NCBI GenBank assembly: GCA_041671645.1
Contig: JBAZBD010000001.1
Coordinates: 799,234-863,233, forward strand
Source: Patescibacteria group bacterium
GTDB lineage: Bacteria > Patescibacteriota > UBA1384 > XYA2-FULL-43-10 > 1-14-0-10-43-13
Direction: 5' to 3'
DNA: 64,000 nucleotides
The position numbers and the translations under genes were made by a program. The notes under the pieces are model-generated. The model saw only the letters and a program-made list of their open reading frames with translations. It was not told the origin of the DNA and did not search any database. Below are positions 4,419 to 48,213 of this stretch, in pieces; the stretch's first letter is position 1, and every line of letters begins with the position of its first letter.

Positions 4419-4446
4419 TCTTTTCGCGATATTTCTTTGGTATGAA

Positions 4447-19300: not shown

Positions 19301-22300
19301 GTTTCGGTGGTGTCACCGTTTCGAGCCAGCGCTTTGACGGAATACAACGTGTTTGAGGTAAGATTTTTCAGGTAATTGACTGTGCCAGTTTCCCAATTTA
19401 CCTTGGTCTTCCAAACCTTTGATGCGCCGCAAGTGCCATCGCCCTGTAGCCATGAGTCTGGAGTTGCGTTGCAGGAAAGAGCAAACTCAGTCCCGGCTGG
19501 ATTTGAGTTGACATTGATTACCGCGGCCATATTATTTCCGCTGGCTGCGCTCCAATCGTAAGCAGTGACAGTGGGGGCATCTGGCGTATTAGCCAAAGTA
19601 TATTTCGGTGCAGCAAAGGCTGGATCAGAATCCCCGTCTGCATTGGTAGCGATCACTTTGGCGCAATATTGAGTATTGATAGTTTTGCCCGTAATGGCCT
19701 GGCTGGTAGCATCTGCGGCAGTGGTATAGTCTGGGGTGCCAGAATACGAAGCGGCGGAACAATCAGCGTTACCAGCGGCAGTGAAGACTTTGAATCCGGT
19801 CTCGTCGCTGGAATTATCAGTCCAAGTAACGGTAAATAAAGTAGAGTCAATCGAAGTGATCGCCACAGTGCTAGCCGCATTTGGCGGAGCCGAAGCGAAC
19901 CAGTTTACATTATTACCGGCGCTCGTAACGTTTGAACCTGAGTTATCGGTATAGATCGCAGTCGCGTTTGCATTTATCGAATCTTTCACTGAAGCATAAG
20001 AGATTGCTCTTGTGCTCTGAGGATCTATAGACCATGTAGAGCCATCAGAGGAAGAATTTAGAGAGATAACTCGACCAGAAGCTCCAGAAACCGTCAGCGC
20101 ACCTGCGATTGTTTGAGTTTTACTTGCCTCAAATTTCAAGGTTTTTGTTGTTGTCGCCCCAGGCTGTATTGTCACAGCGCTAAAAGTGGTATCGCCTGAA
20201 ATATCCTGGATGGAGCTATCTCCTCCATTGAAGACGACCGTGCCAGAATTGTGGGTGAAAGTACCAGCAGTGTGAGTGAAATCATTCGCAACGCTCATAG
20301 TGGTTGACGGAGCAGCGAAGGTACCGTCAGTTTGGATAAAACTACCCACAGTAACTGCATTTGCGCCAGAAGTGAAAGTGCCAGAGGAAACCGTTAGATT
20401 GTTCGAGGCGACAAGAGCGTCAGAAAGCGTAATTGATCCTGTCCCGCCCTGGCTCAAAACAATTTTTTTGTATGCATAGCCAGTAAAGTCACCAAGAGAA
20501 TACGGCGCTAGTCCTGTGTTTATCGTTGCAGCAACAACATTGGTTGATCCATTTATTTTGGAAACTGAATTTGCGCTGGAATTAGTAACCCAGACAAAAC
20601 CGCTTGCATCCACCGCAACACCGCAAGGAGCGCTTCCAACTGTGACTGTCGCAGCTACAGCATTTGTGGCTGTATTTATCTTGGTTACAGTATTTGTACC
20701 TAAATTTGAGACCCAAACAAAGCCGTTGGCATCAGCCGCAACGCCAAATGCATTCGTCCCCGCAGAAACAGTCGCTACAACTGTGTTTGTTGTTGGATTG
20801 ATTTTCGAAACATCACTTGTGCCATAATTCGGAACCCAGACAAAACCATTCAGATCAACTGCGACACCAGCAGGCTGTGTACCGACCGTAATAGTTGCCA
20901 CAACTGTGTCAGTCGTAGCATTGATTTTTGAAACTGTATTGCTATTAAAGTTTGCAACCCAGACAAAACCACTTGAATCGGCGGCGATTCCATAAGCACG
21001 CGCACCGACGTTCACTGTTGCTGCAATTGCATTTGTTGTCGGATTTATCTTGTACGCTACATTGTTCGTACCGCTAGCTACCCAAACAAACCCATTAGAA
21101 TCTATGGCCACGCCATAGGGATCAGAACCAATCGTAATCGAAGCATCTACGCTATTAGTGGAAGCATTAATTTTTGTTAAAGTACCGTTTGATCTGTTGG
21201 TTTGCCAAATAAACCCAGAATTATCAACAGCCACGCCAAATTCGGCCGCTCCGATTGTATGTGTAGTCACTGCGTTTGAAGATGTATCAATTTTTGTCGT
21301 CGTGGTTGCGCCAGAATTTGCAATCCACGCATAAGGAGTTGAAATCGTACCGGCCTGACCAGCCACAGTAATATTGTAAAAATCGTTGCTATTGCTAGCG
21401 ACTGTAGCAGCTGCTGTACCGTTGAAGTTTACCGTTGAAGTCCCTTTGGTGAATGTGCCACCAGTATTATTCCAGCTTCCACCAATATTTATTGTGTAAT
21501 TTCCCGCACTTAGAGTTCCCTCAGCAAGATTCAACGCTCCATCATCATTCAAATCCGCGCCGAGAGTAACCGTATCCGTGTAGCCAGTATTGATAGAGAG
21601 AGATTTGATGTGAGCAGTGAAACCGCTATCGAGAGTTGACGCCTTGGTCGAGGTGGAGTCAAAGACGACATCGCAAGCAGCATCAGGTACAGTATCAAGA
21701 GTCCAGTTCTCAGCTGTACTCCAATTGTTCCCTGTACCGCCGCCATCCCAAACACAACCAGGCAAAACGTCCCAATTGGTCACATTCACACCCTTGGTCC
21801 AGTTGGTCGGGCTTATTGGATTGGCCGCGTTATTCTTCGAATTTGAGACTGAAACATAGTCGACAGTCCACTGATTATCCATGCTCGTGCTTGGAGTGAT
21901 TTCCCATTGTGCACCAGTACCGTTGCGTTGAAGTGTTAACAAATTATCAGCGATACCGGTAGCGGTCCACTGGCCAGTCACAGTCTGATTCGTGCCTGGA
22001 TTGAAGCTGATCGTCCGAGCAGTCGAAGTCGTCATTGTAAAATTGTAAAATTCAGTCGAGCCGCCAACGACTTGGGCCAAGCTCGCAGAATTGAGCTCTA
22101 CGGTACCGTAGTTGTTGCTGAAAGTACCTCCGTCCCGAATAAAATCACCACTAACTTTCATGGTGCCGTTTGGAGCTGAAAAAGTACCAGTGTCCTGAGC
22201 AAAGTGTTTTGTCTCTACGTTGTAGCCATAAGCATTGAATGTATTCGCGAGCGTAATATTCAGCGAATGCTCGACAAGTAAAGTGTCCTGAGTCACGACT

Positions 22301-25300
22301 GTACCGTTAGCAGAGTTTGCAGATAATTGGTAGAACTGGTTGCTGCCGCATTTAACATAGTATGTGTTGGCAGAGTTGATATTGTTGATCCATACCGCGC
22401 CGTCGTTATTCACAAACGTACCACCGCCAGACATGTCGAAGAGGAAGTCAGTGGCAACATCATTGGCGTCAAGTGTTAGGACCTGGGCAGGCGCGTTAAA
22501 TGTACCGCCATAGAGATAAAAATTGTAACTTTTAATTGTAACGGTGGCTGTGTTGCTGTTGAAGGTGCCCGAGATAATAGTAGTAGAATAACCGTTCAAG
22601 ACCAAGGTTGAAGAATTGGAATTAAAAGTGCCGCCGTTTAAGTATAGTCCGCCTACTGTCACAGTGCCTGTACCAGCATTGAAAACAGCACCAGACTCAA
22701 CATAGAAGCTGCCCATGTCGCTAGAAGTAAATGTGGCAGTGGCATTGATTGTACCGTAAATATATGCGCCAGAAGAACCAACACTTGCACCTGGGGTATA
22801 AACTTTTGAAGCCGGGATATGAAGAGAATAACTAGTCGAGAGTACATTGGAACCATCGACACTGAACAAGATTTTTCCATTCGCGTCAGAACAATTATCA
22901 GCAGTCGCAAGAATAGTATTGGTCATCGGGCCAGAGTCTTCATAGGTGAGAGAAACCAGGTAAGAGTAAAGCGACAAGCCCGTGATGTCGCTAGAGCCGG
23001 CCGCAACAGTCACAATATTACCAGCTGAATAATTGCCATCTTCGAAGAAAATTGTAATAACTGTTCCGGCGGTAACACCGCCGGCGACGAAATCAAAAGC
23101 GCCATTCCCATCGGTTGCCATTGTCTGTTTTGCACCACCATTAACCGAGGCAGAAACATTTTGCCCAGAGCCAACATTCCCCTGCCCAATTCCCTGATAT
23201 GCAGTACCCGAGATATGACTGCCGAGCCAGTTGGTATTATTACTACCAGATGCAGTTGAGTTGGTCGGTGCGATTGGTCGAGAATTTAGATTGTTTGAAT
23301 CAGAATAAGTAACACGATCGACTGTCCAAGGCGACATCCCACTGGTGTTCGCATTTATCTTCCATTGGCCCGAGCCTGCAGTGCCGTTGAGCTTCATGAC
23401 AATGTTATTCCCAGCCGCGCCCTGTATTGTGAGCGCTCCAGAAATAGTCTGGGTTGAGTCTGCTGCAAAAGATAATGTCTTGCCAGCAGTGGCACAAGTA
23501 AAGCTAGAAGGAGCGTTGTCGCCAGAGATCACCGATTCTTGAGCAGTATCAAATGTCACGACATAAGGCGAGAAAGTGCCGCCAGCCGTCGTAGTCAGAT
23601 TGCGTCCGATTGTAATATCGCTACCTGAGAAATAAGCGCCTGAGCTGATAGCCGCATCGCGCCCAACAACAACTGCATAAGACGGCGATAAATAGCCGTT
23701 CGTCACAGAAAAGTCATTCGATACCGTAAAGCCAGCACTATAACCTACTGTCCCATCACCAGTGTTTGCGTAAATATAATTATAGATAGGCGGAACGTTT
23801 GTAAACGTATATGGATTGTAACTGCTATTAGCAGGAATTGAGCCAATTTTGAAAGTACCATTGGCGTTATTGAAAGTACCGCCAGAGATATTCCAAGTAT
23901 AATCACTATAATATCCGTTTGAGTCAGTTGTAATAGTCAATGTGCCCGAAGTAGATGTAAATGTACCACCGCTCATCGCAAATGATGCGTTTAGCATAGT
24001 AATCGTAGCAGTGTCACCATTAAATGTAGCACCGGTGCTAACCGTAATTTGATAATTTGATAAGGTCAAATTTGAAGTGTTAGCATTGAAAGTACCGCCA
24101 GAGAAAGTAGGAGTAGCCAAGATGTGAGTACCGCTACCAGCATTGAACTCGCCGCCAGCCTGATAAAATGAGCTGGAAAGAGTGAGGTTATTGGCTTCCA
24201 TCTCAACAATGCCATCGTTATACATACCATAGGCGTTTACATTGCCGCCAGGAGTAAACATCGTATACTGAGTGACATAAAGATCATACATAGTACTGAG
24301 AGTCGAACCAGAGACCGAGAAATCAGAGAAACAGCCGCAGTCATCAGCAATCGCTAAATCTGCGTTTGTAATAGCCCCTGCGGTATAGTCACTGTAAAGA
24401 GTGGTCTTGTATCGATACATATTGAGACCAGTTTTGTCTATGGCGGATTCAGGCAAATAGACGATACTGCCGGAATTGTAGCTCGGATCATTATCAATAA
24501 AGATGGTGACTGGTTTGCCAGCAACAAGCTCGACCCCGCTAAAGGAAAAAGTACCACCGGAGCCAGTGACGCCCGACATCTTTCCGCCACCGTTTGAGGT
24601 AATGGAAATCGGGATATCAGCGCCCAAAACGCTGCCGCCGATACCATCGTAAATTGTGCCGGAAATCGTATTGCCGCCAGAATATGTAACTGTTAATTTT
24701 GGATCGAGTGCCGTACCATCATTTTCTGCAAAGTAGCCATAGAAGTAGACACTATCATAATCGGCATTTATGGTTGGCTGACTATCTGCAGCATCAGCAG
24801 TGATTCTAAGACCAAGCTTCGTAACACCAGATGTACTAATAGCTGCTAGACCGCTTGCATTCATCGCGAAATCGTTGTATCCCATATCGTTGTAACTGGC
24901 GTACGGAATCGCAGATGCAAATGCAGTTGTTCCGAAAGTGTCGTAATCCGATGCTTGAAGCGAAGTGTTGCTAGAAGGGTTCGAGGAATACAGACCCAAA
25001 CTCGAATTCCAACCCGAAGGGTCACCCATCTTGTATGCGCCATATACGGAAAAATTGGCAGCTGAGATAGTCGCGGTGTTTGGGATGCTAGAAGTATCAA
25101 AGAGAAACGCACTTCTTGAGACGTAAGCCCAAGCAGCGTTGTTGCCAGCGGCGATTGCGGCCATATCACCGCTTGTTCCGTCATCAGCAGCGCTATATCC
25201 GCCAGACCTTATGGAAGCCCAGTCCCAATTGCTCCTACTGCTGTAAGTGTACCCATCAACAGACGTGACTTCAGTATGAGTATTTGGATAATAAATAACA

Positions 25301-27273
25301 TCAGTATCAATCTTCATGTCAGACTTTGGCGCTGTCTCTTGCCAGACAAAGCTTGAATCCAAGCTGCCTTCGATCTTTTTGGCTTCGACTGCGACAACCT
25401 TGTCTTGGCCAGTCTCATCTTTGACGACTTCACCAGTTGAGGCATTTACATCAAAAGCTTCTGGCTTGTCTCTGAATTTGAGATCGTCTTTGACGACGAC
25501 AGTCTTGTTTTCTTTGGTCTCTGGGTCGGTGACGACAACACTTCCTTCTTTCCCGCCATCAGTCTTGGTCACATTCCACTGGAAATTCTTCGGCGCGTCT
25601 TCGCCCTTGATTGTCTTCCAGAGACGTACACCATACTCAGAGATGTCAAATTCAAATTTGAGGTTACCGTCATCGGTTGTGACCTGGCTATCCTCAGCCA
25701 AAATCTGTGGTGCAATCCATTTGGAAAGCGCGTTTCTGGTATCTTCGGCCATCTTCTGGTCAGGAGTGTTGATATCGGCCCAAGCCACTTTGCTGTCAGT
25801 TCCCTTTGATTTTGATAAAACTGGATTGCCATCGACGTCTTTCAGGGTCACCGTATATTTGTCGCCAGTTTGTCGAGACTCGATTTCATAGCCAATCTTG
25901 TCTTTGAAAACTTTGACAGTAGAGGGCATCTGGTCAAAAAGCACATATTCGGGCGTATCGATGGAATGATTTGGGTTGATATCCTTCCAGCTTGAGTCAG
26001 CCTTGGCATAATCTTCTTTGTAGTGGACAAGGCCGGTATAGGACTCTAGAGTCTTGGTGCCGTTCTTGTTGTCGATTGTCTTGGTAGTCTCTGTGCGATC
26101 AGCGACAATCTCATTTGGATTGGCCAAAATCTGGTCAGTGCCGTTGTTTGAAATAGTAGTATTCTTCTGGCCCTCTTCTTTGGCGATGACAAATGAATAT
26201 TCCTGGCTCCATGGCGACCAAGCGCCAACAGAGTCCTGATAGCGAACGCGAGAGTAGTAGGTTCCTTCGGTGAGTAGAGTTGTTAGCTTGATATTTGTCA
26301 GTTCGTCTTTGGGCTCTGTCTTTGTCTGATCGAAGATCGGAGAAGCATAATCGCCAGATTTGGTCGAAATCTGCCACTCTGAAGCGTTTTGCGTGTCATT
26401 GTCGATATCAAGATAAGAGCTAGCGCTTAGGGTCTGAGTATTTCTAAACAAGCTTTTGTCAGCAGTGAACGAGAGACCGGTTGGTGTATTTGGAAGTCTA
26501 GAGTAGAGCAAGGTCAAAGAGTGCAAAACAGGCGAAAGACTAGCGTCGCCAGTCGAAAGGGTCAAGCGTATGTAGAGAGTCTCGGAATCGGCCATCTCAA
26601 GGACATCGCTCGAAAACAAAATGTTGTCAGTAGAAAATTCCTTTTTGACAGCACCGCCGTTGAGTACTTCGCTGGCCTCGATCGAAAGCCAATCGACAAA
26701 CTCACCCTTGGCCGGGGTGTAGGCCAAAATCGCGTTGCCAGATTCCTGGTACTGATTTTGTGTAATATCTGAGTCTAACTTCGCACTTTGGGAAAGAGAG
26801 AGAGAATTGGGGTTATCGGCTGTCGAAAGTCCAGAAATAGTCCAACTCTGCCAAGCTTCCTGTGTGCCCCAAGCCACTTGTGAAGAGGCGAAAGTGCGAA
26901 TGACGCTGGTAGCAAAAACGGAGGTGAAGATAAGGGCCACGATGCCAGACATGTAGCCGGAGAGTGAAACCCAGTGAATTGCAGAAGCAAACGGGCTCAT
27001 GTGCCACTTGTAGTACCATCTGAATTTCATCCGAAGATTGTTGTGGAGGGTGGCGAAGACTGGAAAAGTAACCTTGGTCGAACGCTGGATCAAAATGATT
27101 TCACGTTCAAGCTGAGCTTCCTTCTTTTGGAGCTCTTTTTGCTTCTCCGCGACAATCACCTCTTCTTTGGTGAGACCTTCAATCGCTGCCTTGTCCTGAG
27201 GCAACAAAGTGTACTTCTCCAAAGGTGCTTTTTTGGAAAAATGACTGCGGAAAAATTTGCGTAGGCCCTTCAA
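7390..27273 (-). CDS. Giant cell-surface protein (adhesin-like), 6,627 aa. From N to C it has a cytoplasmic coiled tail and TM signal-anchor, many FN3 domains, a YVTN 7-blade beta-propeller, WxGGG..NW beta-helix repeats, Listeria-Bacteroides repeats, DUF285 repeats and a C-terminal TM with CarbopepD_reg-like modules.
   Basis: Single uninterrupted ORF. TTG start at 27273 with an AGGAGG RBS 4 nt upstream. The TM MSGIVALIFTSVFATSVI sits about 115 aa from the start. Recognisable repeat classes are listed in the findings. Confidence 0.8.
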   Translation of the reverse strand: MKGLRKFFRSHFSKKAPLEKYTLLPQDKAAIEGLTKEEVIVAEKQKELQKKEAQLEREIILIQRSTKVTFPVFATLHNNLRMKFRWYYKWHMSPFASAIHWVSLSGYMSGIVALIFTSVFATSVIRTFASSQVAWGTQEAWQSWTISGLSTADNPNSLSLSQSAKLDSDITQNQYQESGNAILAYTPAKGEFVDWLSIEASEVLNGGAVKKEFSTDNILFSSDVLEMADSETLYIRLTLSTGDASLSPVLHSLTLLYSRLPNTPTGLSFTADKSLFRNTQTLSASSYLDIDNDTQNASEWQISTKSGDYASPIFDQTKTEPKDELTNIKLTTLLTEGTYYSRVRYQDSVGAWSPWSQEYSFVIAKEEGQKNTTISNNGTDQILANPNEIVADRTETTKTIDNKNGTKTLESYTGLVHYKEDYAKADSSWKDINPNHSIDTPEYVLFDQMPSTVKVFKDKIGYEIESRQTGDKYTVTLKDVDGNPVLSKSKGTDSKVAWADINTPDQKMAEDTRNALSKWIAPQILAEDSQVTTDDGNLKFEFDISEYGVRLWKTIKGEDAPKNFQWNVTKTDGGKEGSVVVTDPETKENKTVVVKDDLKFRDKPEAFDVNASTGEVVKDETGQDKVVAVEAKKIEGSLDSSFVWQETAPKSDMKIDTDVIYYPNTHTEVTSVDGYTYSSRSNWDWASIRSGGYSAADDGTSGDMAAIAAGNNAAWAYVSRSAFLFDTSSIPNTATISAANFSVYGAYKMGDPSGWNSSLGLYSSNPSSNTSLQASDYDTFGTTAFASAIPYASYNDMGYNDFAMNASGLAAISTSGVTKLGLRITADAADSQPTINADYDSVYFYGYFAENDGTALDPKLTVTYSGGNTISGTIYDGIGGSVLGADIPISITSNGGGKMSGVTGSGGTFSFSGVELVAGKPVTIFIDNDPSYNSGSIVYLPESAIDKTGLNMYRYKTTLYSDYTAGAITNADLAIADDCGCFSDFSVSGSTLSTMYDLYVTQYTMFTPGGNVNAYGMYNDGIVEMEANNLTLSSSFYQAGGEFNAGSGTHILATPTFSGGTFNANTSNLTLSNYQITVSTGATFNGDTATITMLNASFAMSGGTFTSTSGTLTITTDSNGYYSDYTWNISGGTFNNANGTFKIGSIPANSSYNPYTFTNVPPIYNYIYANTGDGTVGYSAGFTVSNDFSVTNGYLSPSYAVVVGRDAAISSGAYFSGSDITIGRNLTTTAGGTFSPYVVTFDTAQESVISGDNAPSSFTCATAGKTLSFAADSTQTISGALTIQGAAGNNIVMKLNGTAGSGQWKINANTSGMSPWTVDRVTYSDSNNLNSRPIAPTNSTASGSNNTNWLGSHISGTAYQGIGQGNVGSGQNVSASVNGGAKQTMATDGNGAFDFVAGGVTAGTVITIFFEDGNYSAGNIVTVAAGSSDITGLSLYSYLVSLTYEDSGPMTNTILATADNCSDANGKILFSVDGSNVLSTSYSLHIPASKVYTPGASVGSSGAYIYGTINATATFTSSDMGSFYVESGAVFNAGTGTVTVGGLYLNGGTFNSNSSTLVLNGYSTTIISGTFNSNTATVTIKSYNFYLYGGTFNAPAQVLTLDANDVATDFLFDMSGGGTFVNNDGAVWINNINSANTYYVKCGSNQFYQLSANSANGTVVTQDTLLVEHSLNITLANTFNAYGYNVETKHFAQDTGTFSAPNGTMKVSGDFIRDGGTFSNNYGTVELNSASLAQVVGGSTEFYNFTMTTSTARTISFNPGTNQTVTGQWTATGIADNLLTLQRNGTGAQWEITPSTSMDNQWTVDYVSVSNSKNNAANPISPTNWTKGVNVTNWDVLPGCVWDGGGTGNNWSTAENWTLDTVPDAACDVVFDSTSTKASTLDSGFTAHIKSLSINTGYTDTVTLGADLNDDGALNLAEGTLSAGNYTINIGGSWNNTGGTFTKGTSTVNFNGTAAATVASNSNDFYNITVAGQAGTISTPYAWIANSGATTTTKIDTSSNAVTTHTIGAAEFGVAVDNSGFIWQTNRSNGTLTKINASTNSVDASITIGSDPYGVAIDSNGFVWVASGTNNVAYKINPTTNAIAATVNVGARAYGIAADSSGFVWVANFNSNTVSKINATTDTVVATITVGTQPAGVAVDLNGFVWVPNYGTSDVSKINPTTNTVVATVSAGTNAFGVAADANGFVWVSNLGTNTVTKINTATNAVAATVTVGSAPCGVAVDASGFVWVTNSSANSVSKINGSTNVVAATINTGLAPYSLGDFTGYAYKKIVLSQGGTGSITLSDALVASNNLTVSSGTFTSGANAVTVGSFIQTDGTFAAPSTTMSVANDFTHTAGTFTHNSGTVVFNGGDSSIQDISGDTTFSAVTIQPGATTTKTLKFEASKTQTIAGALTVSGASGRVISLNSSSDGSTWSIDPQSTRAISYASVKDSINANATAIYTDNSGSNVTSAGNNVNWFASAPPNAASTVAITSIDSTLFTVTWTDNSSDETGFKVFTAAGNADCSAASYSGTPDYTTAADATSQAITGKTINTQYCAKVIATNADGDSDPAFAAPKYTLANTPDAPTVTAYDWSAASGNNMAAVINVNSNPAGTEFALSCNATPDSWLQGDGTCGASKVWKTKVNWETGTVNYLKNLTSNTLYSVKALARNGDTTETSASSAGTATSAPAQPASLTHTANTASQISWDWADVAGASSYRLLKSSDDSDVGSPSASAYDQGSLSANTQYTNYVRAYNGVLGQASSTASAYSSIEAASGITFGTIATDSIQVSATGTFTNLSVGSSGLYITKSAGTGTGFASWNTNNNTLTNTGLSPNTQYSYTAQARNGDGETTAATDSISKYTLAAAPDAPTLAASSASVINIKLTDNSSTTYAIAVSADGGSTWNYVKHADGTNQASEDWQNYAAWGGASGFDNVSLSPNVQYTYKVKARNGDNTETAFSSTAAKYTLANVPSAPTVDATSSSSLTVKINQNSNPAGTNYAVYNDTLSKYVQADGSSDTSAVWQDYTTWGGASGVTNTGLTANTEYTYKVKAKNGDNVETALSSGTAQTTVDVAPTEPNTVAIGTLTTTGFTVTWTDASSNETGFKVYTAAGNADCSAASYSGTPDYTTAAGAISQAITSKSINTQYCAKVIATNAIGDSAPAYAAPKYTLAAAPDAPTLAASSASVINIKLTDNSSTTYAIAVSADGGSTWNYVKHADGTNQASEDWQNYAAWGGASGFDNVSLSPNVQYTYKVKARNGDNTETAFSSTAAKYTLANVPGTPTFGTVTSTTIPVLIAQNSNPSNTTYAIKVVYGATTKYVQANSTLGDSAVWQAYATWGSSKTVTGLTANTLYTFSVAATNGDSVATAYSATADQSTLAVYTLTYNSGANGSVIGSSPQTVDHGSSGSEVVATPAANYHFVKWSDNDSTNPVRTDTNVTANITTTASFAIDTHTLAYSAGANGSIVGTTPQTIDHGASGSEVTATPAANYHFVSWSDDVMTAARTDSNVAGDIAVTASFAIDTHTLTYSAGANGSIVGTTPQTVDHGSSGSEVTATPAANYHFVSWSDDVMTAARTDLNVADNISVTATFAINTYTLTYNAGSNGSVVGTSPQTVDYGANGSQVTATPAAGYYFVDWSDANTTAARTDTNVTVDITVTANFALQFLSRWDTSKTSSGSSTATQIHLPLESTGTYNFIVDWGDSSTSTITTWNQAETTHTYASGGIYDLKIGGTITGFRFNNAGDKLKLSQISQFGPLRLGNSDGYFSGTKNLKITATDVLNTTGTTTMKNSFRDSGIDTVPSMNSWDMSAVTDMYCMFESSSLFNQDISSWNTGAVTSMYAMFYNAFVFNQNIGSWNTTNVINMAYMFESAWAFNQNISSWNTGSVTTMREMFWNNSAFNQNISNWNTGAVTNMNQMFYSAAAFNQNLASWNVVNVTDMTNMFSSSALSNANYSNILIGWSAQAVKSNVTLGAATKKYTLGAAADGRAHLVSAHTWTITDGGPSAFVLTYSAGSGGSIVGITPQTVDYGANGSEVTATPAANYHFTSWSDGVLTAARTETNVITDKSVTASFAIDTHTLTYSAGANGSVVGSTPQTVNYGANGSQVTATPAANYHFVSWSDDVMTAARTDSNVAGDIAVTASFALDAPASATGVTITPTSSTTFNVTWTDNSSIETGYKVYTADGNADCSAASYSGTPDTTTSADAVSQAIASKSVNTQYCAKVVATNSGGDSAPAYAAPKYTLANVPTFTTVAGDYSDADLWHLDTTINASANPAGTNYYIQYSTNDGAGAGNFYDPNAMAWQTETTYLFKKDKDNVDLAANTQYWMKVKAKNGDNVETIYTSTSVADVTPPAAPTALNITNICTTKATTTWTAATGADSYTVSYGTDTAATNIGTLTTATTSKQITGLSNTTTYYWKASATSTANGTGPYAAPSSFETSNCGVESPDDFAGSAASTTQINWTWSDITSEETGYKVEDSAHTSLSGNLDAGSTSYNETPLSANTGYTRHVNVYNGGGSQDSNSDTVYTLAAVPGQPTVTTLSSSRIRITVDKNGNPNANTRYAIAVSADAGSTWNYVKNADGTTQVSEDWQLYADWGGDSGFANTGLTKNTNYIYKIKARNGDNVATDFGATNNTTTLDNFSVTISSDGSGSGSLDQVTQIVDAGADVTTTATAAASSDFVSWTGCDTVATNICYLTDVSADRSITAVFTIKTYTITINEAGTGTGDLDQVTQDVNYGANLTVVATADISSTFTGWSGDATGTGDASFTNITANKTITATFTIKTYTITINTTGTGMGDLDQATQTVNYGANLTVVATPAASSTFAGWSGDATGTGDASFTNITANKTITATFTIRSYTVTISKAGNGTGDLDQSTQVVTYGANLTVAATPAVSSDFTGWSGDAAGTGSAALTNITADKTITATFTLKTYTISSSAGSNGAISPLGDNLANYGTSPEYTITPSDGYYISNVVVDGSAISGTLPSSYTFTNVTATHSISVSFAANNTCVWDGQAADDNWSSADNWTANIIPSATCDVIFDATSTKDSTLDASFTSHIKSLSVNTGYSGTISANTTLNDDGDFTLNAGTFTANAQTLNIAGSLTMTADPTAVFNEGTSTINFNPTTTGKTITTNGQVLGNLIFNGVDAVIDPNVTLLNNNISLLANHTLTAGWTFQDNVSAQSLTANAGTLVDGGKSVNIAGDIIIANKVGVLASTGVWTQSSSGNIANPDMHNTFGSLVAAGSGITSTMTAGVSVGLGSGSAGAFTVGPGTLMGIGKAVIVYSRSNDSVTVNNLTADSRLGVLAIYPQIADMTQKAITLPSNFATTFSFQQDPTGILTATGNFNFGNSNVIVAKDRTTTPAGYVDMSTHNLTCKNLTIGSTSTNEYATIPGYLKLGSGTTNIAGSLSHGNASNIGNKLDLGSGTINVGGNWDTSNITVTPGTSTVDLTGTGTLQSKGYAAAPYDFYNLKLAHNGNTTNAISSVTTSNVLYTYAGGTLNGDNRYAFRMYKSDGDAVVNTGANFTASTFLVYRPSSDVTVAGQNFGQGSVAYSGVTNDVAITLSSDVTTTRDIYAYSITTGKRTTLNAVDNNLTARNLYLAYPVYGVGTANLGSGTHEFTNGIFRYTGSTDDTNVLNLESSSVSIGGNIDFTGMTVDPGTSTITLNGIGGQTVAGSNTFNNLSATASAARTISFASDTTQTVNGALSLNGTSAGNITLSRSGGTGTDQWKIDPKGSTSTSYLSVENSKNLSSAVIDPSNSINLGNTNKWFPPTGTISFSSARTNQIDQTLTLSSSTGTQMKVSNSPDFSGSEYETFSTSKSWTLAAPTVDGMKTVYLKVKDIDGDESPTASASIILDITAPSAPTNLTALSASASVSLSWVNPTDTDFANVAIFRSTEADFTPNIGTNKIAYTTLSSTATYIDSNVTSGVTYYYKVEAIDSVDNYSAASNQASGKPDSDKPTAPGKPTVSGKTNTIDNIEYYNQPAVTLTWPAATDTNSGILNYSIKICKTSGCANANDALSLSTLTSPSNSLTLDGASALADGTYYVRVAANDNLGNQFAWSEELTFILDTVLPSSLEKVEAFDISDRVNSDYRVMLRWKASTDTGSGLLGYTIVKNGNNIISESTSGVQVDASGYASYVDTVTPNTQFNYSVFSFDLAKNQTASMAAEFQTTTVVDCSGCVILPPDEPGEGTLEISDVKATPSELMSEKAQATITWKTTVPATTQVKYGASAPYPYTTEVDTGLNSFHTVVLSDLDFNKTYHFAVISKDKYGQTAESTDFTFATKDIFKEQSVLDTVISNLSGTAMKVRDIIGQMQIVGVNNSGQPVVFGIPTSTTTPASTAAVAGIAIISAAAAPLANAATLFSLPEYIRSLIFALASLGTKKSRRKWGRVLEVGTYIPIAQAKLTLFKLTQTFPGSFSKRPVANTYSDIEGNFSFVADPGKYEIEVTKDLYEVSEAPGFYKKGQIIEVKSEQEGLIVPNILLSMNDKSIAKRFSFIEKIGVVEKVLVYVSLGFLIFGTVSILNSLAHSHRDTVTLVSALLFPLLWYVNIKSFVKVSPWGNVLDSVNHSGVSLALVRIMDGEGKRLIRTAVTNEKGKFSTVLPKGKYKLLVAKAGYKPSDATHMDAQEKLQTVSRKIEIDRDK
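12757..12850. repeat. About 95-bp perfect intragenic repeat, copy 1. It is the coding sequence of a 72-aa Listeria-Bacteroides-type repeat unit.
   Basis: The sequence gattgtaaatgtggccgtaattgtcttgttagctgtgatgtt.gtgaaagatgcgtcccctgtgccagttgcgtcgccagaccaacca recurs 216 bp later. Confidence 0.7.
12972..13068. repeat. About 95-bp perfect intragenic repeat, copy 2.
   Basis: See copy 1. The period is 216 bp, or 72 aa. Confidence 0.7.
17489..17828. repeat. 340-bp perfect intragenic duplication, copy 1. It encodes an FN3-type segment.
   Basis: The stretch from ggtacattagccaaagtatacttggcagcag to gcaagggtgtatttgg is identical base-for-base to 18413..18752. Confidence 0.85.
18413..18752. repeat. 340-bp perfect intragenic duplication, copy 2.
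   Basis: Identical to 17489..17828. The period is 924 bp (308 aa, roughly three FN3 domains). Confidence 0.85.
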
Positions 27274-27312
27274 CTTCCCTCCTGCGACAACCAGTCTTAT
27301 TATTATGAGTAT

Positions 27313-27341
27313 ATTTTAACAAGAGAAGTGAACTCGTTCAA
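27313..27341 (-). promoter_or_regulatory. Putative promoter of the giant gene (TTGAAC-N17-TAAAAT), with a GTGAAC-tc-GTTCAC inverted repeat overlapping the -35 element.
   Basis: Minus-strand sequence cccttgaacgagttcacttctcttgttaaaat, about 35 nt upstream of the RBS. Confidence 0.25.
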
Positions 27342-27429
27342 GGGCAAAAGAGGGTCTTGGCTGTTGATAAGATACAGAAAAATAGAACAAATTTATTTGC
27401 CTCATATTTGTCTTTGCTAGACTAGATAA

Positions 27430-28158
27430 TTAGTAAATTTTCTTTTGCAAATTTTGACGGATTTTCCACGAATCAACTATCATTTTGAGCCCATCTTTCA
27501 ATGGGTTGACAGTCGAATGTGGATCATCGTGCCAGGTGATCCCCTCCTCCTTTATTTTGTATCCTAATTTTTTGGCAATAGCTAAAACTTCAATATCGAA
27601 AGAGAAGTCAAATATGGTCAGCTTCTCGAAAATCGCTCCGGCCGCCTCTTTCGAAAATAATTTGAAACCGCACTGTGTGTCTTTGATCCCAGGCGTCACA
27701 AGGGCTTGGATCATCCAGTTCAAAGCTCGGCTGCCCGCTCTTCGAGTGAATGACTGTGGGATGGCTAATTTGCCACCTTTGCAGTATCTGGAGCCGATGA
27801 CGACATCGTATTTATCGATATGGGCAAGAAGTTTGTCGACCTGTTCGATTGGGGTAGAATTATCAGCATCGGCGAATAACACATACTGGCCCTTTGCCAA
27901 TTTGATTCCGTCCTGCACTGCACCACCCTTCCCGCGGTTCTGTTCGCCTTCGTAGATCACCAGATTCGGAATTCTGTCCACAAAATGTTCGGCGGAGCCA
28001 ACCGTGTCATCAGGGGATGCATCAATTGCAACTATCGTTTCGACGATGAAGTCTTTGGTTTTAACATATTTTTCTATCGCTTCCAGAATAACGTGGATCC
28101 GTTTTTCTTCACGATATGCCGGAATCACAATTGATAAATAGATTTTCTCGTCCATCAA
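27430..28158 (-). CDS. GT2 polyprenol-phosphate glycosyltransferase (DPM1/GtrB-like), 242 aa.
   Basis: Matches the dolichol-P-mannose synthase family through LSIVIPAYRE, the DAD motif (FADADNSTP) and GSRY. Confidence 0.8.
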   Translation of the reverse strand: MMDEKIYLSIVIPAYREEKRIHVILEAIEKYVKTKDFIVETIVAIDASPDDTVGSAEHFVDRIPNLVIYEGEQNRGKGGAVQDGIKLAKGQYVLFADADNSTPIEQVDKLLAHIDKYDVVIGSRYCKGGKLAIPQSFTRRAGSRALNWMIQALVTPGIKDTQCGFKLFSKEAAGAIFEKLTIFDFSFDIEVLAIAKKLGYKIKEEGITWHDDPHSTVNPLKDGLKMIVDSWKIRQNLQKKIY

Positions 28159-29993
28159 AGTCCTATTTTGTGATTAATATTTGGTCTGGGATAATCAAGA
28201 TATTTGATCGGATACGGAGATTTGGGCGGATGTTGCTTCAAGTCTTCCGGAGTAATGTTGTAGACCAGGATAGAGCCACCAATAATCGCCTTTGGCTTAA
28301 TATCGTCAAGCCAGTTGTACGACCATTTGCCCTCTTCTGGACCACGTAATTTTGACAATTGATAGAAAGTCGCAGAGACAGCCAACCAGCCCGTAGTGGG
28401 TCCGTAGCTAGAATGCCAGTCTGTACGACTTGGCAAGTAATAGGTGGGGACTGAACCGAAATAATCCACCTTAATATTCGTGATATTATTGTCGCCTACG
28501 TATTTCTTGAGTCGGAGAAAGTCCTGGCCCCAATCAAGTGAAGAGTCAACTAGCCTGGTGTAGCGCTTGTCTTTGGGGGTGAGTTCATTGAAATACGCGA
28601 TGAAATTAGGGAAATTTGAGATTGTTGAAACAGCTAAATATGCCAGAAGAATAACTAGGGCGATCTGCATCCGACCCAGTTTCCGCCAATTCCAGCTGGG
28701 ATTCACAATTGGATAAATTGCATAACCGATCATCAATAATACGAAGGGAATCGTTGGCATGAGATGACGAATACCAATGTTCAGCGAACCCTGCAATGTG
28801 ATAGCCCAGTAAATAACCCATGGCACGATTAGGAGCGAGAGCATCCATTTGATTTCTTTTTGCTTTGGCCAATTACGAATTATCGAATAAACAGAAAAGA
28901 AAAACATAGCTATGATTGGTAAGGGAGTTTTGAGCAACCAAGCGACCGGGAAATACCAGGGGATTGATTTGTCAGAAAGATGACCCCAAATAAAGGTTGC
29001 ATTGCCACCGCCAACACGGCCGATAACTAGGAATATTCCCAGGATATAGTGGCCAAGTGCTCGCAAGTACGGATTATTTTCAAATAAGTGGAGAAAGTTT
29101 CTAAGGGGCAAAGTCCTCGCATCGGACGTCATATTTGTGTCTATCAATTGATGCTCGATAGCAGGCGGAGTCTTCCAAACCAAAGGTAGGTAAACCAACC
29201 AGACGACCACCAATGAGATCAGACTGACATATACTAGAGGCATGAAATTTGCAACAAAATTATGCCGGAAGCCTTTCTCCTTTCTATCCAAAACGGCCCG
29301 AACTACCACGAGAATGAAGAAAATCGGGAACAGCAAAACCCCAGAAAACTTTAGGAGTTCAGCTATCCCGAGCGCAACTCCGGCAAGCAAAATGCTCGAC
29401 AAAGTTTTCTTAGTGACCGCCTTGTCAAAGGCATACGTCGCCAAGACAAAACCAAATGCCGCCGCTACGTCGGTAGTGACTAGCCGGCCGTGAGCGATGA
29501 CGTCAGGGTAAAGCGCATATAGGAAAAGGATGACTACGCCGACTTTCCAGCCGAAGAGCTCAATCGCCCACTTGAAGAGCAACAGGCCCAGCCCAATCAT
29601 GAGCAGCATCATCGGAAGTCTGGCAAGAGAGAATACTTCGGCAGGATCGTTGCCTTGACGATAAATCATGCTCCAGCCCGATTCCCATTGGTTTATGTCT
29701 TTGAAGCTTGAATCGTCCTCTGGACCCTTGATCTTACTATTCATGACGAGAGGAACACCGGCCAGAACTTTCGCCAGAGGCGGATGCTCTGGATTCAATC
29801 GATAATCTTGATCTTTTAAGTAGGTATAGCCAGCGGGAATATGTGCGATTTCATCGACAATAGCAGAATCACCCGGCGTGTTTCCGATCCCTCGGGAGGA
29901 AAATAGGGCGAGCAAGAACATAAACAGGAGAATCCCCGCAGGCACGAAATATTTATATTGTATTTTACTGCAGATCCTCTTTAGCAATTTCAT
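28155..29993 (-). CDS. GT-C glycosyltransferase of PMT_2 / GT39-like type (phospholipid-carrier-dependent, YkcB/ArnT-like), 612 aa.
   Basis: DEIAHIPAGYTY...NPEHPPLAKVL is the DE-x-H plus PPL signature of PMT/ArnT-type GT-C enzymes. About 11 TM helices and a C-terminal soluble domain are present. It overlaps the neighbouring genes by 4 nt and 29 nt. Confidence 0.7.
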   Translation of the reverse strand: MKLLKRICSKIQYKYFVPAGILLFMFLLALFSSRGIGNTPGDSAIVDEIAHIPAGYTYLKDQDYRLNPEHPPLAKVLAGVPLVMNSKIKGPEDDSSFKDINQWESGWSMIYRQGNDPAEVFSLARLPMMLLMIGLGLLLFKWAIELFGWKVGVVILFLYALYPDVIAHGRLVTTDVAAAFGFVLATYAFDKAVTKKTLSSILLAGVALGIAELLKFSGVLLFPIFFILVVVRAVLDRKEKGFRHNFVANFMPLVYVSLISLVVVWLVYLPLVWKTPPAIEHQLIDTNMTSDARTLPLRNFLHLFENNPYLRALGHYILGIFLVIGRVGGGNATFIWGHLSDKSIPWYFPVAWLLKTPLPIIAMFFFSVYSIIRNWPKQKEIKWMLSLLIVPWVIYWAITLQGSLNIGIRHLMPTIPFVLLMIGYAIYPIVNPSWNWRKLGRMQIALVILLAYLAVSTISNFPNFIAYFNELTPKDKRYTRLVDSSLDWGQDFLRLKKYVGDNNITNIKVDYFGSVPTYYLPSRTDWHSSYGPTTGWLAVSATFYQLSKLRGPEEGKWSYNWLDDIKPKAIIGGSILVYNITPEDLKQHPPKSPYPIKYLDYPRPNINHKIGL

Positions 29994-31500
29994 TTTGTCC
30001 CTCCAAAATATTTGACCTCTTTGTTGATTTCGTAGTCACTCTGAAAACTTCAAGATATTTACCAAACATCAGCCGAGTCTGTGATTCCATAGCTGGGATG
30101 GAAGAAAAGAAAATGTTGGAAATCGGCATTACAAATGGGGTCAGGCACCAGTCGAGTAGAATTCGACCAAATGGTTTCCTGCCTTGTCTCTTCGGCATCA
30201 GAAGGGTAGAAATCACAAGTGTGACAATCATACCGAGCCATGCGATAGTCAGCATTTTGATATACACTCCGCGAAAGCTATATGCCAAAATGTCTCCCTG
30301 AAAGGCAGAGCCGAAAAAAACCGGAATCCAGGCTGAAGTGATCAGGACCAACGATGTCGTCGACCAGGAGATATGTGATTCCCATAATATCAAAGCGTTC
30401 GCCCACCTGTCAAAAAACGGTATTTTGTGGTTTCCTATCGTATTTTCCATCACAAAAGGGATGTCTGACACACCCCAAGCCCAACGTTTTTTCTGCAAAT
30501 ACTGCTCACGCATAGTATTCCTGAAAGTGTCAGCCAAGACTGCGTCCTGATAGATTGGAGTATACATCGGTACCACTTCGTGACAGCCGTCAAACCGATA
30601 ATAAGTTCGCCAAAACTGATGGCCGTCTTCCACAATCGTCTTGGTCGACCAGAAATCTGTTTGGACTAGTGCGGCTAGACTCTGTGCATGGGCAGAGAAA
30701 TTACGAAGCCGAGAAGGTCTTGTCGTAACAATTAATTGCCAAAAAGACGAACCCATCGCCATCAACCGATTCATCATCGGCACGTCCCAAATATTGTTGA
30801 AAAACATAGGCAACGGCTGAAAACTTTTGTGGATGGGATCGGGATCAGTGACATATTTATAAGTCAGATCGAGGAGATAATTTTTGTCCATGATATGGTC
30901 CGAATCCATCGTTGTCACGACCACATTTTCGTAAGGAATTTTCTCTTTGTCGATTTGTTCGAGTACCTTTCTGGCCGCGTAGGTGATGTTCCCACCTTTA
31001 CCGATCACTTCACCGGGAATATCCTTGGGATGCATTACGGTCATGAAAAGATGAAACTTCTTGCCGTGCTTTTCGGTTAATATTTTGGAATACTCCCCTG
31101 CCCGTTCTTTGTCGCGCTCCTCCGTCCCCAAGACATAAATAACATGATCCTGCGGGTAATTCGAAGTGAGAACGGAACGAATAGATGATTCTAGAATTTC
31201 AATATCTTCCTTGTATGTCGGAACAATCACAAGATGATATATCTCCTTCCATTTGCCGTCCGTCTGGTCTAATTTTGCTTGCCAATCAGTTTTCATGTCA
31301 CGTCGATAATTTCGATAACCCAGGATTAACCGATAAGACATCACAAATGTTCTTATCAACCAGTAAGTTAGATAAAAAATCATGTAAATAGCAAATACTT
31401 TTGGCGAGACTAGGACAACGACGAAAGGCAAAAGCAATATTGACCAAGAAATCAAACCGGGGAGTACTTCAAACAATCTTTTGTATTTCCAGGTGTTCAT
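29965..31500 (-). CDS. Membrane-embedded processive GT2 (cellulose/chitin/hyaluronan-synthase-like), 511 aa.
   Basis: D, DxD (TMDSDH), (T)ED and QKKRW (QxxRW) motifs, with TM helices on both sides of the catalytic domain. Confidence 0.7.
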   Translation of the reverse strand: MNTWKYKRLFEVLPGLISWSILLLPFVVVLVSPKVFAIYMIFYLTYWLIRTFVMSYRLILGYRNYRRDMKTDWQAKLDQTDGKWKEIYHLVIVPTYKEDIEILESSIRSVLTSNYPQDHVIYVLGTEERDKERAGEYSKILTEKHGKKFHLFMTVMHPKDIPGEVIGKGGNITYAARKVLEQIDKEKIPYENVVVTTMDSDHIMDKNYLLDLTYKYVTDPDPIHKSFQPLPMFFNNIWDVPMMNRLMAMGSSFWQLIVTTRPSRLRNFSAHAQSLAALVQTDFWSTKTIVEDGHQFWRTYYRFDGCHEVVPMYTPIYQDAVLADTFRNTMREQYLQKKRWAWGVSDIPFVMENTIGNHKIPFFDRWANALILWESHISWSTTSLVLITSAWIPVFFGSAFQGDILAYSFRGVYIKMLTIAWLGMIVTLVISTLLMPKRQGRKPFGRILLDWCLTPFVMPISNIFFSSIPAMESQTRLMFGKYLEVFRVTTKSTKRSNILEGQNEIAKEDLQ

Positions 31501-31829
31501 TGGTGAGATAGATAATAAATTTCCAAAATCATTACAAGTGCTACTGCCAAGATATTGCCGATGAAGAGGAGATAGCCAATTTCGCGTTCTCTTTTGAAGG
31601 AAGAAAAGGCCAAAACAGTGTTGAGAATCAGAATGATGAAAAGCAGTTTGATTGGGTAAACACCGATTCTGATATAGACAAAAATGTCTGGAGAGCTAAG
31701 CAAGAAATGCCAGATAAGATAATCTACAAACGACCAGATTAGGGAAATAGAAAACAAATACCGATTCACGATATCGTCAACCAGAAATTCCTTCAGGAAC
31801 GGACCAAGGGTGGTTATATATTTTTTCAT
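31497..31829 (-). CDS. Small polytopic membrane protein (possibly a GtrA-like flippase partner), about 110 aa.
   Basis: Three or four TM helices, 4-nt overlap with the processive GT2 gene. The start is trimmed to Met9 to avoid overlap with tRNA-Thr. The GtrA assignment is inference from context only. Confidence 0.35.
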   Translation of the reverse strand: MKKYITTLGPFLKEFLVDDIVNRYLFSISLIWSFVDYLIWHFLLSSPDIFVYIRIGVYPIKLLFIILILNTVLAFSSFKREREIGYLLFIGNILAVALVMILEIYYLSHQ

Positions 31830-31842: not shown

Positions 31843-31918
31843 TGGAGCCGCATTCGAGATTCGAACTCGAGACCTCCACTTTACGAAAGTGTTGCTCTAC
31901 CAGCTGAGCTAAAGCGGC
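31843..31918 (-). tRNA. tRNA-Thr (anticodon CGT).
   Basis: The reverse complement folds as a cloverleaf with anticodon loop TTCGTAA, T-loop TTCGAAT and CCA encoded. There is one T-T mismatch in the acceptor stem. Confidence 0.8.
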
Positions 31919-31919: not shown

Positions 31920-31993
31920 TGGAGCGGGTAGTGGGAATCGAACCCGCGACTCATCCTTGGGAAGGATACATTTTACCACTAAACTATACCCGC
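31920..31993 (-). tRNA. tRNA-Gly (anticodon CCC).
   Basis: The reverse complement folds as a cloverleaf: acceptor GCGGGTA/TACCCGC, anticodon loop TTCCCAA, T-loop TTCGATT, discriminator U and CCA encoded. One C-A mismatch lies in the T-stem. Confidence 0.75.
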
Positions 31994-33238: not shown

Positions 33239-33287
33239 GCGGGGGCGTAGTTTCAGCCAAAGGCTGATCAGCCTCTGGCTGACAGTT
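33239..33287 (+). pseudogene. tRNA-Asp 5' fragment (GGGGGCGTAGTT...CAGTTGG) interrupted by a 30-nt double-hairpin insertion.
   Basis: gggggcgtagtt and cagttgg match nt 1-19 of the intact tRNA-Asp at 33564. Between them lies tcagccaaaggctga-tcagcctctggctga, two tandem hairpins. Confidence 0.5.
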
Positions 33288-33294
33288 GGAAAAT

Positions 33295-33573
33295 ATGCAT
33301 TTTGTTTATTTCTTAAAAAGTATTACCAACGGAAAGTATTACGTCGGTCAGACAGATCGCGAACCTTCTGTACGTTTACAAGAGCATAATTCTGGCCATA
33401 ATTCATGGACAAAAAAGAATGGCCCCTTCGAACTGATTTACCACGAAAGTTATGCATGCAAAGAAGATGCTAGGAGGAGAGAAAACTTTTATAAATCTGG
33501 TATTGGCAAAAGGGTTATGAAAGCGATAATCGAGATATTTGTTAATAAGGAAAAACCAACTACGGGGGCGTAG
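33295..33573 (+). CDS. GIY-YIG nuclease family protein (YhbQ/UPF0213-like), about 92 aa.
   Basis: VYFLKSITNGKYYVGQT...RLQEHN matches the GIY-YIG core. The ATG at 33295 is preferred over the upstream TTG. The 3' end overlaps tRNA-Asp by 10 nt. Confidence 0.65.
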   Translation: MHFVYFLKSITNGKYYVGQTDREPSVRLQEHNSGHNSWTKKNGPFELIYHESYACKEDARRRENFYKSGIGKRVMKAIIEIFVNKEKPTTGA

Positions 33574-33640
33574 TTCAGTTGGTTAGAACGCCACACTGTC
33601 ACTGTGGAGGTCGCCGGTTCGAGCCCGGTCGCTCCCGCCA
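33564..33640 (+). tRNA. tRNA-Asp (anticodon GTC).
   Basis: Cloverleaf with acceptor GGGGGCG/CGCTCCC, anticodon loop CTGTCAC, T-loop TTCGAGC, discriminator G and CCA encoded. Confidence 0.9.
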
Positions 33641-43423: not shown

Positions 43424-43624
43424 TTAGGGTAATTCGACTATTGCGAATATTAATGTTGTCACAATGATAGCGACAGAAACGATAGAATAAATCACTATGG
43501 CAAGCTTGGAAAGGTCACCCGAGTAGCCAAAACGCCAGAGATGATAAATCCCCACGCCGCTGTAGATAACGAAGGCGAGGACAACACAAAGATAGATTAC
43601 GATAACAGCATAATTATAATTCAT
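43424..43624 (-). CDS. Small two-TM membrane protein, about 66 aa.
   Basis: Two hydrophobic helices. The start is trimmed to Met14 to abut the queH stop. Confidence 0.3.
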   Translation of the reverse strand: MNYNYAVIVIYLCVVLAFVIYSGVGIYHLWRFGYSGDLSKLAIVIYSIVSVAIIVTTLIFAIVELP

Positions 43625-44205: not shown

Positions 44206-44207
44206 CT

Positions 44208-45257: not shown

Positions 45258-45330
45258 GAGGCCATTATAACAAAAAGAGAGCTCAATACTAGCTCCCTGC
45301 TCCTATTTGATCTCCATCCGTAAATAAAGC

Positions 45331-47018: not shown

Positions 47019-47020
47019 TT

Positions 47021-48196: not shown

Positions 48197-48213
48197 GTTT
48201 GCTTCCCTGACTC

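Follow-up and report, generated by a model that had tools for sequence, protein, structure and literature searches.

Two routes by which bacteria build or modify the glycans of their envelope bear on the locus described here. In one, multi-component systems comprising a cytoplasmic glycosyltransferase of the GT-A fold, a GtrA-family flippase and a transferase of the GT-C fold decorate envelope polymers (PMC8035078). In the other, membrane-embedded synthases of glycosyltransferase family 2 (GT2) may depend on small integral membrane partners, which are needed for full activity in the PgaC/PgaD and IcaA/IcaD pairs; IcaD and PgaD are themselves mutually non-homologous (PMC7112194). A cluster of four genes that appears to join the two was studied in a 64,000 nt stretch, hereafter the window, of the contig JBAZBD010000001.1 (positions 799,234 to 863,233) from a Patescibacteria group bacterium, one of the candidate phyla radiation (CPR). 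In order, this module encodes a 110 aa membrane protein, a 511 aa GT2 synthase, a 612 aa GT-C transferase and a 242 aa soluble GT2. An earlier, sequence-only reading had seen in it a three-component polyprenol-phosphate glycosylation system accompanied by a processive synthase, and had proposed that it glycosylates a giant surface protein encoded alongside, or else makes an associated exopolymer. The explanation favoured here, tentatively and at slightly less than even confidence, is that the lineage-conserved module produces a glycopolymer of the envelope and adds decorating sugars to it on the outer side of the membrane, with the product of the neighbouring synthase as the acceptor.

The closest homologues of the module proteins are labelled Candidatus Berkelbacteria or Patescibacteria, and relatives with a GT-C protein at least 49% identical are referred to here as Berkelbacteria-level. 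At this level the synthase gene adjoins the GT-C gene, or lies near it, in 17 of 18 assessable loci, the order being small protein, synthase, (GtrA), GT-C and GT2, with start and stop codons again overlapping at the gene junctions. The 242 aa GT2 gene directly follows that of the GT-C protein in the loci with downstream sequence, other than L023 (loci are given by our own numbers). This sole Berkelbacteria-level exception to the module lies on a 237 kb contig labelled delta proteobacterium, a label that may be wrong; it has a 53% identical GT-C and at least two further GT-C open reading frames (ORFs) or fragments, with neither a synthase nor a DPM1-like GT2 detected within 10 kb. A small ORF was present immediately upstream of the synthase at 19 of 19 loci in this first survey and at 12 of 12 loci of the same synthase subfamily in a second, making 31 of 31 in total. 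In the second survey, which took a Doudnabacteria-type synthase as its seed, the synthase family divided into two subfamilies. Members of the first have the small ORF directly upstream (these 12 of 12) and, in seven of nine assessable loci, a neighbouring PMT_2 GT-C from the same family, these neighbours being found in two gene orders, one co-directional and one divergent; members of the second, at about 60 loci, have neither. The recurrence of this GT-C family beside the synthase pair, in more than one gene order, speaks for a functional connection between them. Around the synthase in L087 are two PMT_2 genes and a WecA/MraY-type gene (PF00953), the last following the synthase.

The module is furthermore preceded, on the same strand, by a tRNA-Gly(CCC)-tRNA-Thr(CGT) pair in 14 of 16 related loci (L001, L003, L005, L007-L009, L012-L014, L017, L019, L024, L030 and L074). 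The flanking protein coding genes are otherwise reshuffled, with only the closest relative, L007, sharing the upstream TrpRS, SPFH and enolase genes.

The 511 aa protein is treated here, on the basis of its motifs and a predicted structure, as a membrane-embedded GT2 synthase of the HAS/BcsA type belonging to a divergent CPR family. It contains the motifs PTYKE (residues 94-98), GKGGN (167-171), D199xD201, VEDGH (290-294, including E291-D292) and QKKRW (336-340), all five of which are invariant across 33 homologues; the D, DxD, ED and QxxRW motifs are also kept in homologues 32-44% identical to the Doudnabacteria-type reference. Its scores against the Pfam GT2 families are under the gathering thresholds (21.7 against 23.3 for PF00535, and 17.7 against 27 for PF13641), and the CelA, NodC and BcsA models of NCBIfam match at E values of 1e-4 to 0.02, far under their cut-offs. 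Searches of the PDB by sequence or profile returned no match at E values up to 1 for this protein, nor for the GT-C protein; hence structure prediction was needed for both. The AlphaFold2 (AF2) model of the synthase (pLDDT 74.5, pTM 0.74) has two long N-terminal helices (7-31 and 33-70) and three to four at the C terminus (326-355, 362-389, 404-434 and 444-478), with the GT-A domain between them. The best matches found by Foldseek in the PDB were the Chlorella-virus HAS (7sp8; 6.5e-7), BcsA (4p00; 8.5e-7) and Xenopus HAS1. The earlier designation of this protein as a QxxRW processive synthase is thus supported by the QKKRW and companion motifs and the HAS/BcsA-like model, but not by the Pfam GT2 scores, and it is by likeness to such enzymes that the protein would be processive.

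The 110 aa protein, with hydrophobic peaks beginning at residues 25, 57 and 84, had been suggested to be GtrA-like and hence a candidate flippase. This suggestion fails: the protein matches no Pfam or NCBIfam family, and PF04138 is absent from it and from 17 syntenic homologues at E values up to 1. The family was assembled by synteny because a word-based homology search returned just three proteins; when the resulting 18-sequence profile was aligned by hhalign with eight CPR GtrA sequences, the probability was 0.67%. Moreover, a true GtrA is present alongside the small protein in L005, L018 and the loci with a GtrA::GT-C fusion, which also indicates that the small protein is not the flippase. 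What it does track is the synthase, as the small ORF is kept even at loci whose GT-C gene is missing or on the opposite strand, and at loci that have no DPM1-like GT2 in the vicinity. Therefore it is likely to be a partner of the synthase, and by analogy is probably an accessory subunit working in the manner of IcaD and PgaD without being homologous to them; the feature shared with these proteins is that a small integral membrane protein is encoded beside, and co-inherited with, a GT2 synthase, which is a likeness of mode only.

A different partner for the small protein can be envisaged, as GacJ is a small protein with three transmembrane (TM) segments that assists the cytoplasmic GT-A enzyme GacI (PMC8035078). 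The 110 aa protein has three hydrophobic segments, and the 242 aa GT2 has no TM helix, such that the former might anchor and activate the latter rather than serve the synthase. We regard this as very unlikely. None of the 18 family members matches DUF2304, the GacJ family, or any other Pfam family consistently; the small gene is never adjacent to that of the 242 aa GT2, being always next to the synthase and two to three genes away from the GT2; and it persists with no DPM1-like GT2 within 10 kb in L040, L087, L088, L145 and L148, and in L046 with only a weak, 45 bit GT2-domain match in a 1012 aa ORF about 5 kb away. GacJ/DUF2304 identity was accordingly rejected, as was that of GtrA.

The 242 aa GT2 is a candidate polyprenol-phosphate sugar synthase of the DPM1/PpgS class, as judged from its sequence. 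It matches PF00535 with 92 bits and has a DAD motif at residues 97-99; its best solved relatives are the Dol-P-Man synthase of Pyrococcus furiosus (PfDPMS, 5mlz; 3e-14), GtrB (5ekp) and ArnC, in alignments spanning about 170-190 residues. The top NCBIfam families, AglJ, Dol-P-hexose transferase, PgfS and PpgS, are all polyprenol-phosphate sugar synthases, with every match far under the equivalog cut-off. No TM helix or hydrophobic segment above threshold was found in it, which places it closer to the soluble DPM1/PpgS enzymes than to GtrB.

Its gene is translationally coupled to that of the GT-C transferase, and this coupling supports the view that the two would form the core of a polyprenol-phosphate-sugar system for extracytoplasmic glycosylation. 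These are two of the three components originally proposed. The third, the flippase, was not found: a hidden Markov model (HMM) built from 15 CPR GtrA sequences matched none of the ORFs of at least 50 aa in the window, and the flippase serving the module in this genome is presumably encoded elsewhere. In relatives, a separate GtrA gene lies between those of the synthase and the GT-C protein (L005, L018, L021 and L030), or GtrA is fused to the N terminus of the GT-C protein (homologues P0108 and P0116; loci L013, L014, L016, L019 and L024). These arrangements provide independent support, of the Rosetta-stone kind, for a polyprenol-phosphate system. The natural GtrA::GT-C fusions are about 750-770 aa long and occur in several Berkelbacteria, with the flippase-family domain N-terminal to the PMT_2 transferase.

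The 612 aa protein has around 11 hydrophobic or TM segments and scores above gathering against both PF13231 (36 bits) and PF02366 (26.2 bits against a cut-off of 22.7, over residues 122-268 only). Amongst the Pfam families expected from the sequence-only reading, PF00535 and PF13231 were recovered in the 242 aa GT2 and the GT-C protein respectively, but PF04138 was not found and PF13641 fell short in the synthase. The protein has a polytopic GT-C fold and, in its first outer loop, a putatively catalytic acidic motif, VDEIAH at residues 46-51, in which E48 and H51 are invariant and D47 is at least 90% conserved. Its C-terminal extracytoplasmic alpha/beta domain (about residues 470-600) is strongly conserved and aromatic-rich, with the motif DSSLDWGQD at 483-491 and the conserved residues W488, Y498, Y511, F512, W526, W557, Y559 and W561; this is compatible with the binding of a glycan, and is a lead only. 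In the AF2 model (pLDDT 85.8, pTM 0.87) the closest solved structure is the fungal Pmt4 of C. thermophilum (9i5k; 1e-7, TM-scores 0.53/0.64), followed by STT3, AglB and PglB and then by ArnT (5ezm) and Pmt1/2. No NCBIfam family was matched. The full domain set of the GT39 PMT family is not present, given that the PF02366 match is partial and that the PMT_4TMC domain is absent from the query and all 120 homologues; membership of the ArnT family (GT83) fails likewise.

That the GT-C protein modifies lipid A or another lipid in the manner of ArnT seems highly improbable. PF13231 does include ArnT, the 5ezm structure is among the matches (1.7e-5), and ArnC is among the relatives of the 242 aa GT2. 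However, ArnT ranks only tenth by structure, below Pmt4 and the oligosaccharyltransferases, with a TM-score of 0.30, and no ArnT model of NCBIfam was matched at E values up to 0.1. The grouping with ArnT lipid A modifiers that the sequence-only reading had set against itself was therefore not seen, the nearest structure being that of Pmt4. To our knowledge, CPR bacteria are in addition regarded as lacking lipopolysaccharide.

The same resemblances offer more to the proposal that the module O-glycosylates proteins, with the GT2 making a polyprenyl-phosphate-hexose, the GT-C protein moving the hexose to serine or threonine residues of proteins that are secreted or displayed at the surface, the giant one perhaps among them, and the synthase pair making an unrelated polymer that merely shares the operon. 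Consistent with this are the PF02366 (PMT) match above gathering, the DE-type motif in the first outer loop, the sequence of structural matches from Pmt4 to oligosaccharyltransferases, the presence of PgfS among the best NCBIfam matches of the 242 aa GT2, and the distant GT-C homologues that have no synthase nearby. We nevertheless consider it unlikely, though a genuine competitor: PMT_4TMC was not detected, and the proposal leaves unexplained the tight and recurrent linkage of the GT-C gene to the small protein and synthase genes in varied orders.

The favoured explanation, in which the module both makes and decorates an envelope glycopolymer, builds on what the analysis shows, namely the identities of the genes, the folds and motifs of their products, the synteny and the GtrA fusions. 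The 511 aa GT2 would polymerise a nucleotide-sugar at the cytoplasmic face and thread the chain through its own membrane channel, with the 110 aa, three-segment protein acting as an accessory subunit that resembles IcaD and PgaD in function but not in ancestry. The soluble 242 aa GT-A enzyme would load a single sugar onto polyprenyl phosphate, and the lipid-linked sugar would then be flipped across the membrane, which in relatives could be performed by the GtrA encoded in the cluster or fused to the GT-C protein. The last step, on the outer side of the membrane, would be transfer of the sugar by the PMT-like GT-C protein, with the polymer of the neighbouring synthase as the most likely acceptor. 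What we infer is processivity, the part played by the small protein, the identity of the donor sugar and, most of all, that of the acceptor. A bolder version of this scheme, which we think possible but doubtful, is that it constitutes a CPR-specific pathway, wherein a PMT-like GT-C protein, using a polyprenyl-phosphate-sugar, adds branches outside the membrane to a polymer extruded by an enzyme of the HAS or cellulose-synthase type, and wherein the synthase would require a hitherto unrecognised three-segment membrane subunit.

Several observations weigh against this explanation, besides the missing flippase. At about 55 loci of distant CPR homologues of the GT-C protein (33-40% identity), a synthase is mostly lacking within 10 kb, hence the GT-C family is not strictly dependent on an adjacent synthase; conversely, the small protein and synthase genes occur without a nearby GT-C gene in L148 and L089. 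Where the synthase and GT-C genes are paired outside the Berkelbacteria, no DPM1-like GT2 or GtrA was detected nearby. The Foldseek TM-scores of the synthase are low, at 0.35-0.46, and one of its good matches, PcManGT, may be non-processive, whilst the nearest structural relatives of the GT-C protein (Pmt4, STT3 and PglB) all glycosylate proteins. A literature search found no characterised system in which a synthase-made polymer is branched by a GT-C enzyme, and we know of none. The search likewise found nothing specific on glycosyltransferase systems of CPR bacteria or Berkelbacteria, and no description of a synthase GT2 and small partner in one conserved operon with a polyprenyl-phosphate-sugar/GT-C pair; the combination may be new, with the absence of earlier descriptions counting as weak evidence.

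A further alternative accepts that the GT-C protein and the 242 aa GT2 decorate an envelope polymer, but holds that this is not the product of the neighbouring synthase, being instead a lipoglycan, or else a wall polymer, secondary or resembling teichoic acid, that a LytR-CpsA-Psr (LCP) protein attaches; CsbB/YfhO, GtlA/GtlB and PpgS/Rv3779 would be the models. The characterised bacterial multi-component systems of this design all decorate lipoteichoic acid, wall teichoic acid, rhamnan, O-antigen or arabinogalactan (PMC8035078). The window encodes a protein of the LCP family that carries a LytR_C domain (40398-41822, minus strand), implying that this organism attaches a polyprenyl-linked glycopolymer to its wall; the PpgS- and AglJ-type matches span the full length of the 242 aa GT2; and the PF00953 gene of L087 follows the synthase. 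Even so, in none of the inspected loci do teichoic-acid genes, or those of an ABC- or Wzx-Wzy-dependent polymer, lie beside the module, and the partner that is conserved is the synthase pair; we judge this alternative improbable. Further from the module, the window carries genes for two GT4 glycosyltransferases, an S6PP-like HAD phosphatase and a GalT/HIT-like protein, interleaved with queH, ruvB, ruvA and ruvC (43621-50899, minus strand). In L003, queH, ruvB, ruvA, an S6PP-like gene and two GT4 genes lie a few kilobases downstream of the glycosylation module.

The organisation of the locus is summarised below. All four ORFs of the module are real, co-directional genes on the minus strand. The junction of the 110 aa and 511 aa ORFs is a 4 nt overlap, ATGA, and that of the 511 aa and GT-C ORFs is a 29 nt overlap, in which the GT-C ATG is preceded by the ribosome-binding site GGAGGG. 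As originally noted, the DPM1-like GT2 gene overlaps the PMT_2 GT-C gene by 4 nt, in TTGA(TG), or by only 1 nt should translation begin at the following ATG. The ATG at 31829 was taken as the start of the small ORF, since the homologues are 110 aa long and the alternative 118 aa reading runs into tRNA-Thr. Also confirmed were the two tRNA genes at the 5' end of the operon, tRNA-Gly(CCC) and tRNA-Thr(CGT), on the same strand as the module. The 13 nt between the latter and the small ORF leave no space for a promoter, making co-transcription likely; hence the module and both tRNAs probably share a single transcript, to judge by this spacing. Weakly similar GIY-YIG ORFs are found near the module in L015, L018 and L074; in the window, at 33286-33640 on the plus strand, a 95 aa GIY-YIG ORF ends 10 nt inside a tRNA-Asp(GTC) gene (33564-33640).

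Table. Features of the glycosylation module and its surroundings, by position in the window.
Feature	Position	Strand	Remarks
tRNA-Gly(CCC)	31920-31993	-	ARAGORN; conserved 5' boundary of the module
tRNA-Thr(CGT)	31843-31918	-	ARAGORN; 3' end 13 nt before the ATG of the 110 aa ORF
110 aa membrane protein ORF	31497-31829	-	three hydrophobic segments; uncharacterised family
511 aa membrane GT2 synthase ORF	29965-31500	-	HAS/BcsA-type motifs and predicted fold; divergent CPR family
612 aa PMT_2 GT-C ORF	28155-29993	-	PF13231 and PF02366
242 aa soluble DPM1-like GT2 (GT-A) ORF	27430-28158	-	PF00535
Spacer between module and giant gene, 156 nt	27274-27429	-	promoter-like site, no terminator-like hairpin
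Giant ORF	7390-27273	-	6627 aa, 25% Ser+Thr; start 156 nt downstream of the module
fn3-like gene, 239 aa	6667-7386	-	cassette member
MacB-type fused ABC ATPase-permease	4447-6486	-	cassette member
tRNA-Pro(TGG)	4305-4380	-	ancestral 3' neighbour of the module; here 23 kb after the 242 aa GT2

Downstream of the module lies the gene that had motivated the proposal of protein glycosylation. The giant protein has an N-terminal TM anchor, C-terminal TM segments and many fn3-like and repeat modules. Long, near-identical stretches are also duplicated within it; one of these, KYTLAAAPDAPTLAASSASVINIKLTDNSS...AAKYTLANVP, is present twice. Its serine and threonine content, its membrane anchoring and its proximity to the module, with no terminator-like hairpin intervening, would suit an acceptor for O-glycosylation. 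The intervening spacer contains a promoter-like site on the minus strand (27341..27313; TTGAAC-17-TAAAAT with a TG); this is a match to consensus, and the scan for hairpins was likewise made at the level of consensus, neither being informative for CPR bacteria.

Comparison with relatives does not bear out a linkage to giant genes. In 12 related loci the sequence beyond the module extends for at least about 6 kb, and none of them has an ORF of 1000 aa or more, the size taken here as large, downstream of it; a giant fn3-rich gene occurs within 10 kb in only one genome (L003/L011), where it lies upstream and on the opposite strand. What follows the module in relatives is tRNA-Pro(TGG), which is located 0.1-1.2 kb after the 242 aa GT2 in L001, L005, L012, L013, L014, L018, L019 and L024, and 3 kb after it in L030. 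In the window, exactly three co-directional genes (4447-27273), those of the giant protein, the fn3-like protein and the ABC ATPase-permease, separate the module from this ancestral neighbour. As tRNA-Pro(TGG) directly follows the module in relatives, this cassette was taken to be a secondary insertion; it is probably a recent, lineage-specific insertion of about 23 kb beside a tRNA gene, as far as gene order can tell. No repeat of at least 8 nt is common to its borders (27274-27429 and 4291-4500), and no insertion scar was found. The adjacency of the module and the giant gene thus probably results from this insertion and does not mark a functional unit, and the gene arrangement provides no evidence that the giant protein is O-glycosylated by the module. 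A system dedicated to glycosylating it makes a tempting story, but an unsupported one. Exopolymer synthesis, the other possibility originally raised, fits the data better, although not as a polymer tied to the giant protein.

The envelopes of CPR bacteria are almost uncharacterised, and since these cells attach to hosts, their surface glycans probably matter. The module is one of few multi-gene envelope units conserved across the whole of a CPR lineage, and it brings together two glycan-building strategies that are otherwise found apart. The parts that it opens to experiment are a divergent family of synthases, a new family of small partner proteins, and a GT-C protein with a distinctive C-terminal domain. 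If the bolder, CPR-specific version of the favoured explanation is true, this would be the first synthase-dependent glycan to be decorated by a GtrA/GT-C system, and its product would be a major polymer of the envelope in Berkelbacteria and other, related ultrasmall bacteria, encoded by a tRNA-bracketed unit that has been kept amid genome rearrangement.

Of the known protein-glycosylating systems, the actinobacterial Ppm1 and Pmt (GT39) and the streptococcal PgfS and PgfM1/M2 resemble the module in pairing a GT2 similar to polyprenyl-phosphate-hexose synthases with a GT-C protein that has a PMT match in Pfam, a DE-type motif in loop 1 and a structure nearest to Pmt4. In contrast to these, the GT-C protein of the module lacks PMT_4TMC and has the conserved C-terminal alpha/beta domain containing DSSLDWGQD; matches to the named NCBIfam equivalogs are far below the cut-offs; and a polysaccharide synthase is encoded alongside the pair, any protein acceptor being putative. 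The systems GtrA/GtrB/GtrC, CsbB/GtcA/YfhO, GtlA/GtcA/GtlB, GacI/GacJ/GacK/GacL and PpgS/Rv3779 likewise couple a GT-A GT2 of the polyprenyl-phosphate-sugar-synthase class to a polytopic GT-C protein, and a GtrA-family gene is similarly found within the cluster, or fused to that of the GT-C protein, in relatives of the module. The module differs from them in having no flippase gene in the cluster or window of this genome, in a GT-A enzyme that is without TM helices and nearer to DPM1/PpgS than to GtrB, in a GT-C protein that is PMT_2- and Pmt4-like rather than of the YfhO or GtrC type, and in that its conserved neighbour is a synthase-type GT2 and not an ABC- or Wzy-dependent polymer pathway.

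With PgaC/PgaD, IcaA/IcaD, HAS, BcsA and NodC, the 511 aa protein shares the form of a membrane GT2 flanked by TM helices and bearing the motifs D, DxD, ED and QxxRW, HAS and BcsA being the closest in structure, though its similarity to the synthase families of Pfam and NCBIfam is below threshold. As in PgaC/PgaD and IcaA/IcaD, a small polytopic membrane protein is encoded adjacent to the synthase, here with overlapping start and stop codons; unlike IcaD and PgaD, it precedes the synthase in gene order and is homologous to neither. The PilZ domain, c-di-GMP module, deacetylase and porin genes of such synthase systems are absent, and amongst them all, only the module couples its synthase to a GT-C/polyprenyl-phosphate-sugar pair.

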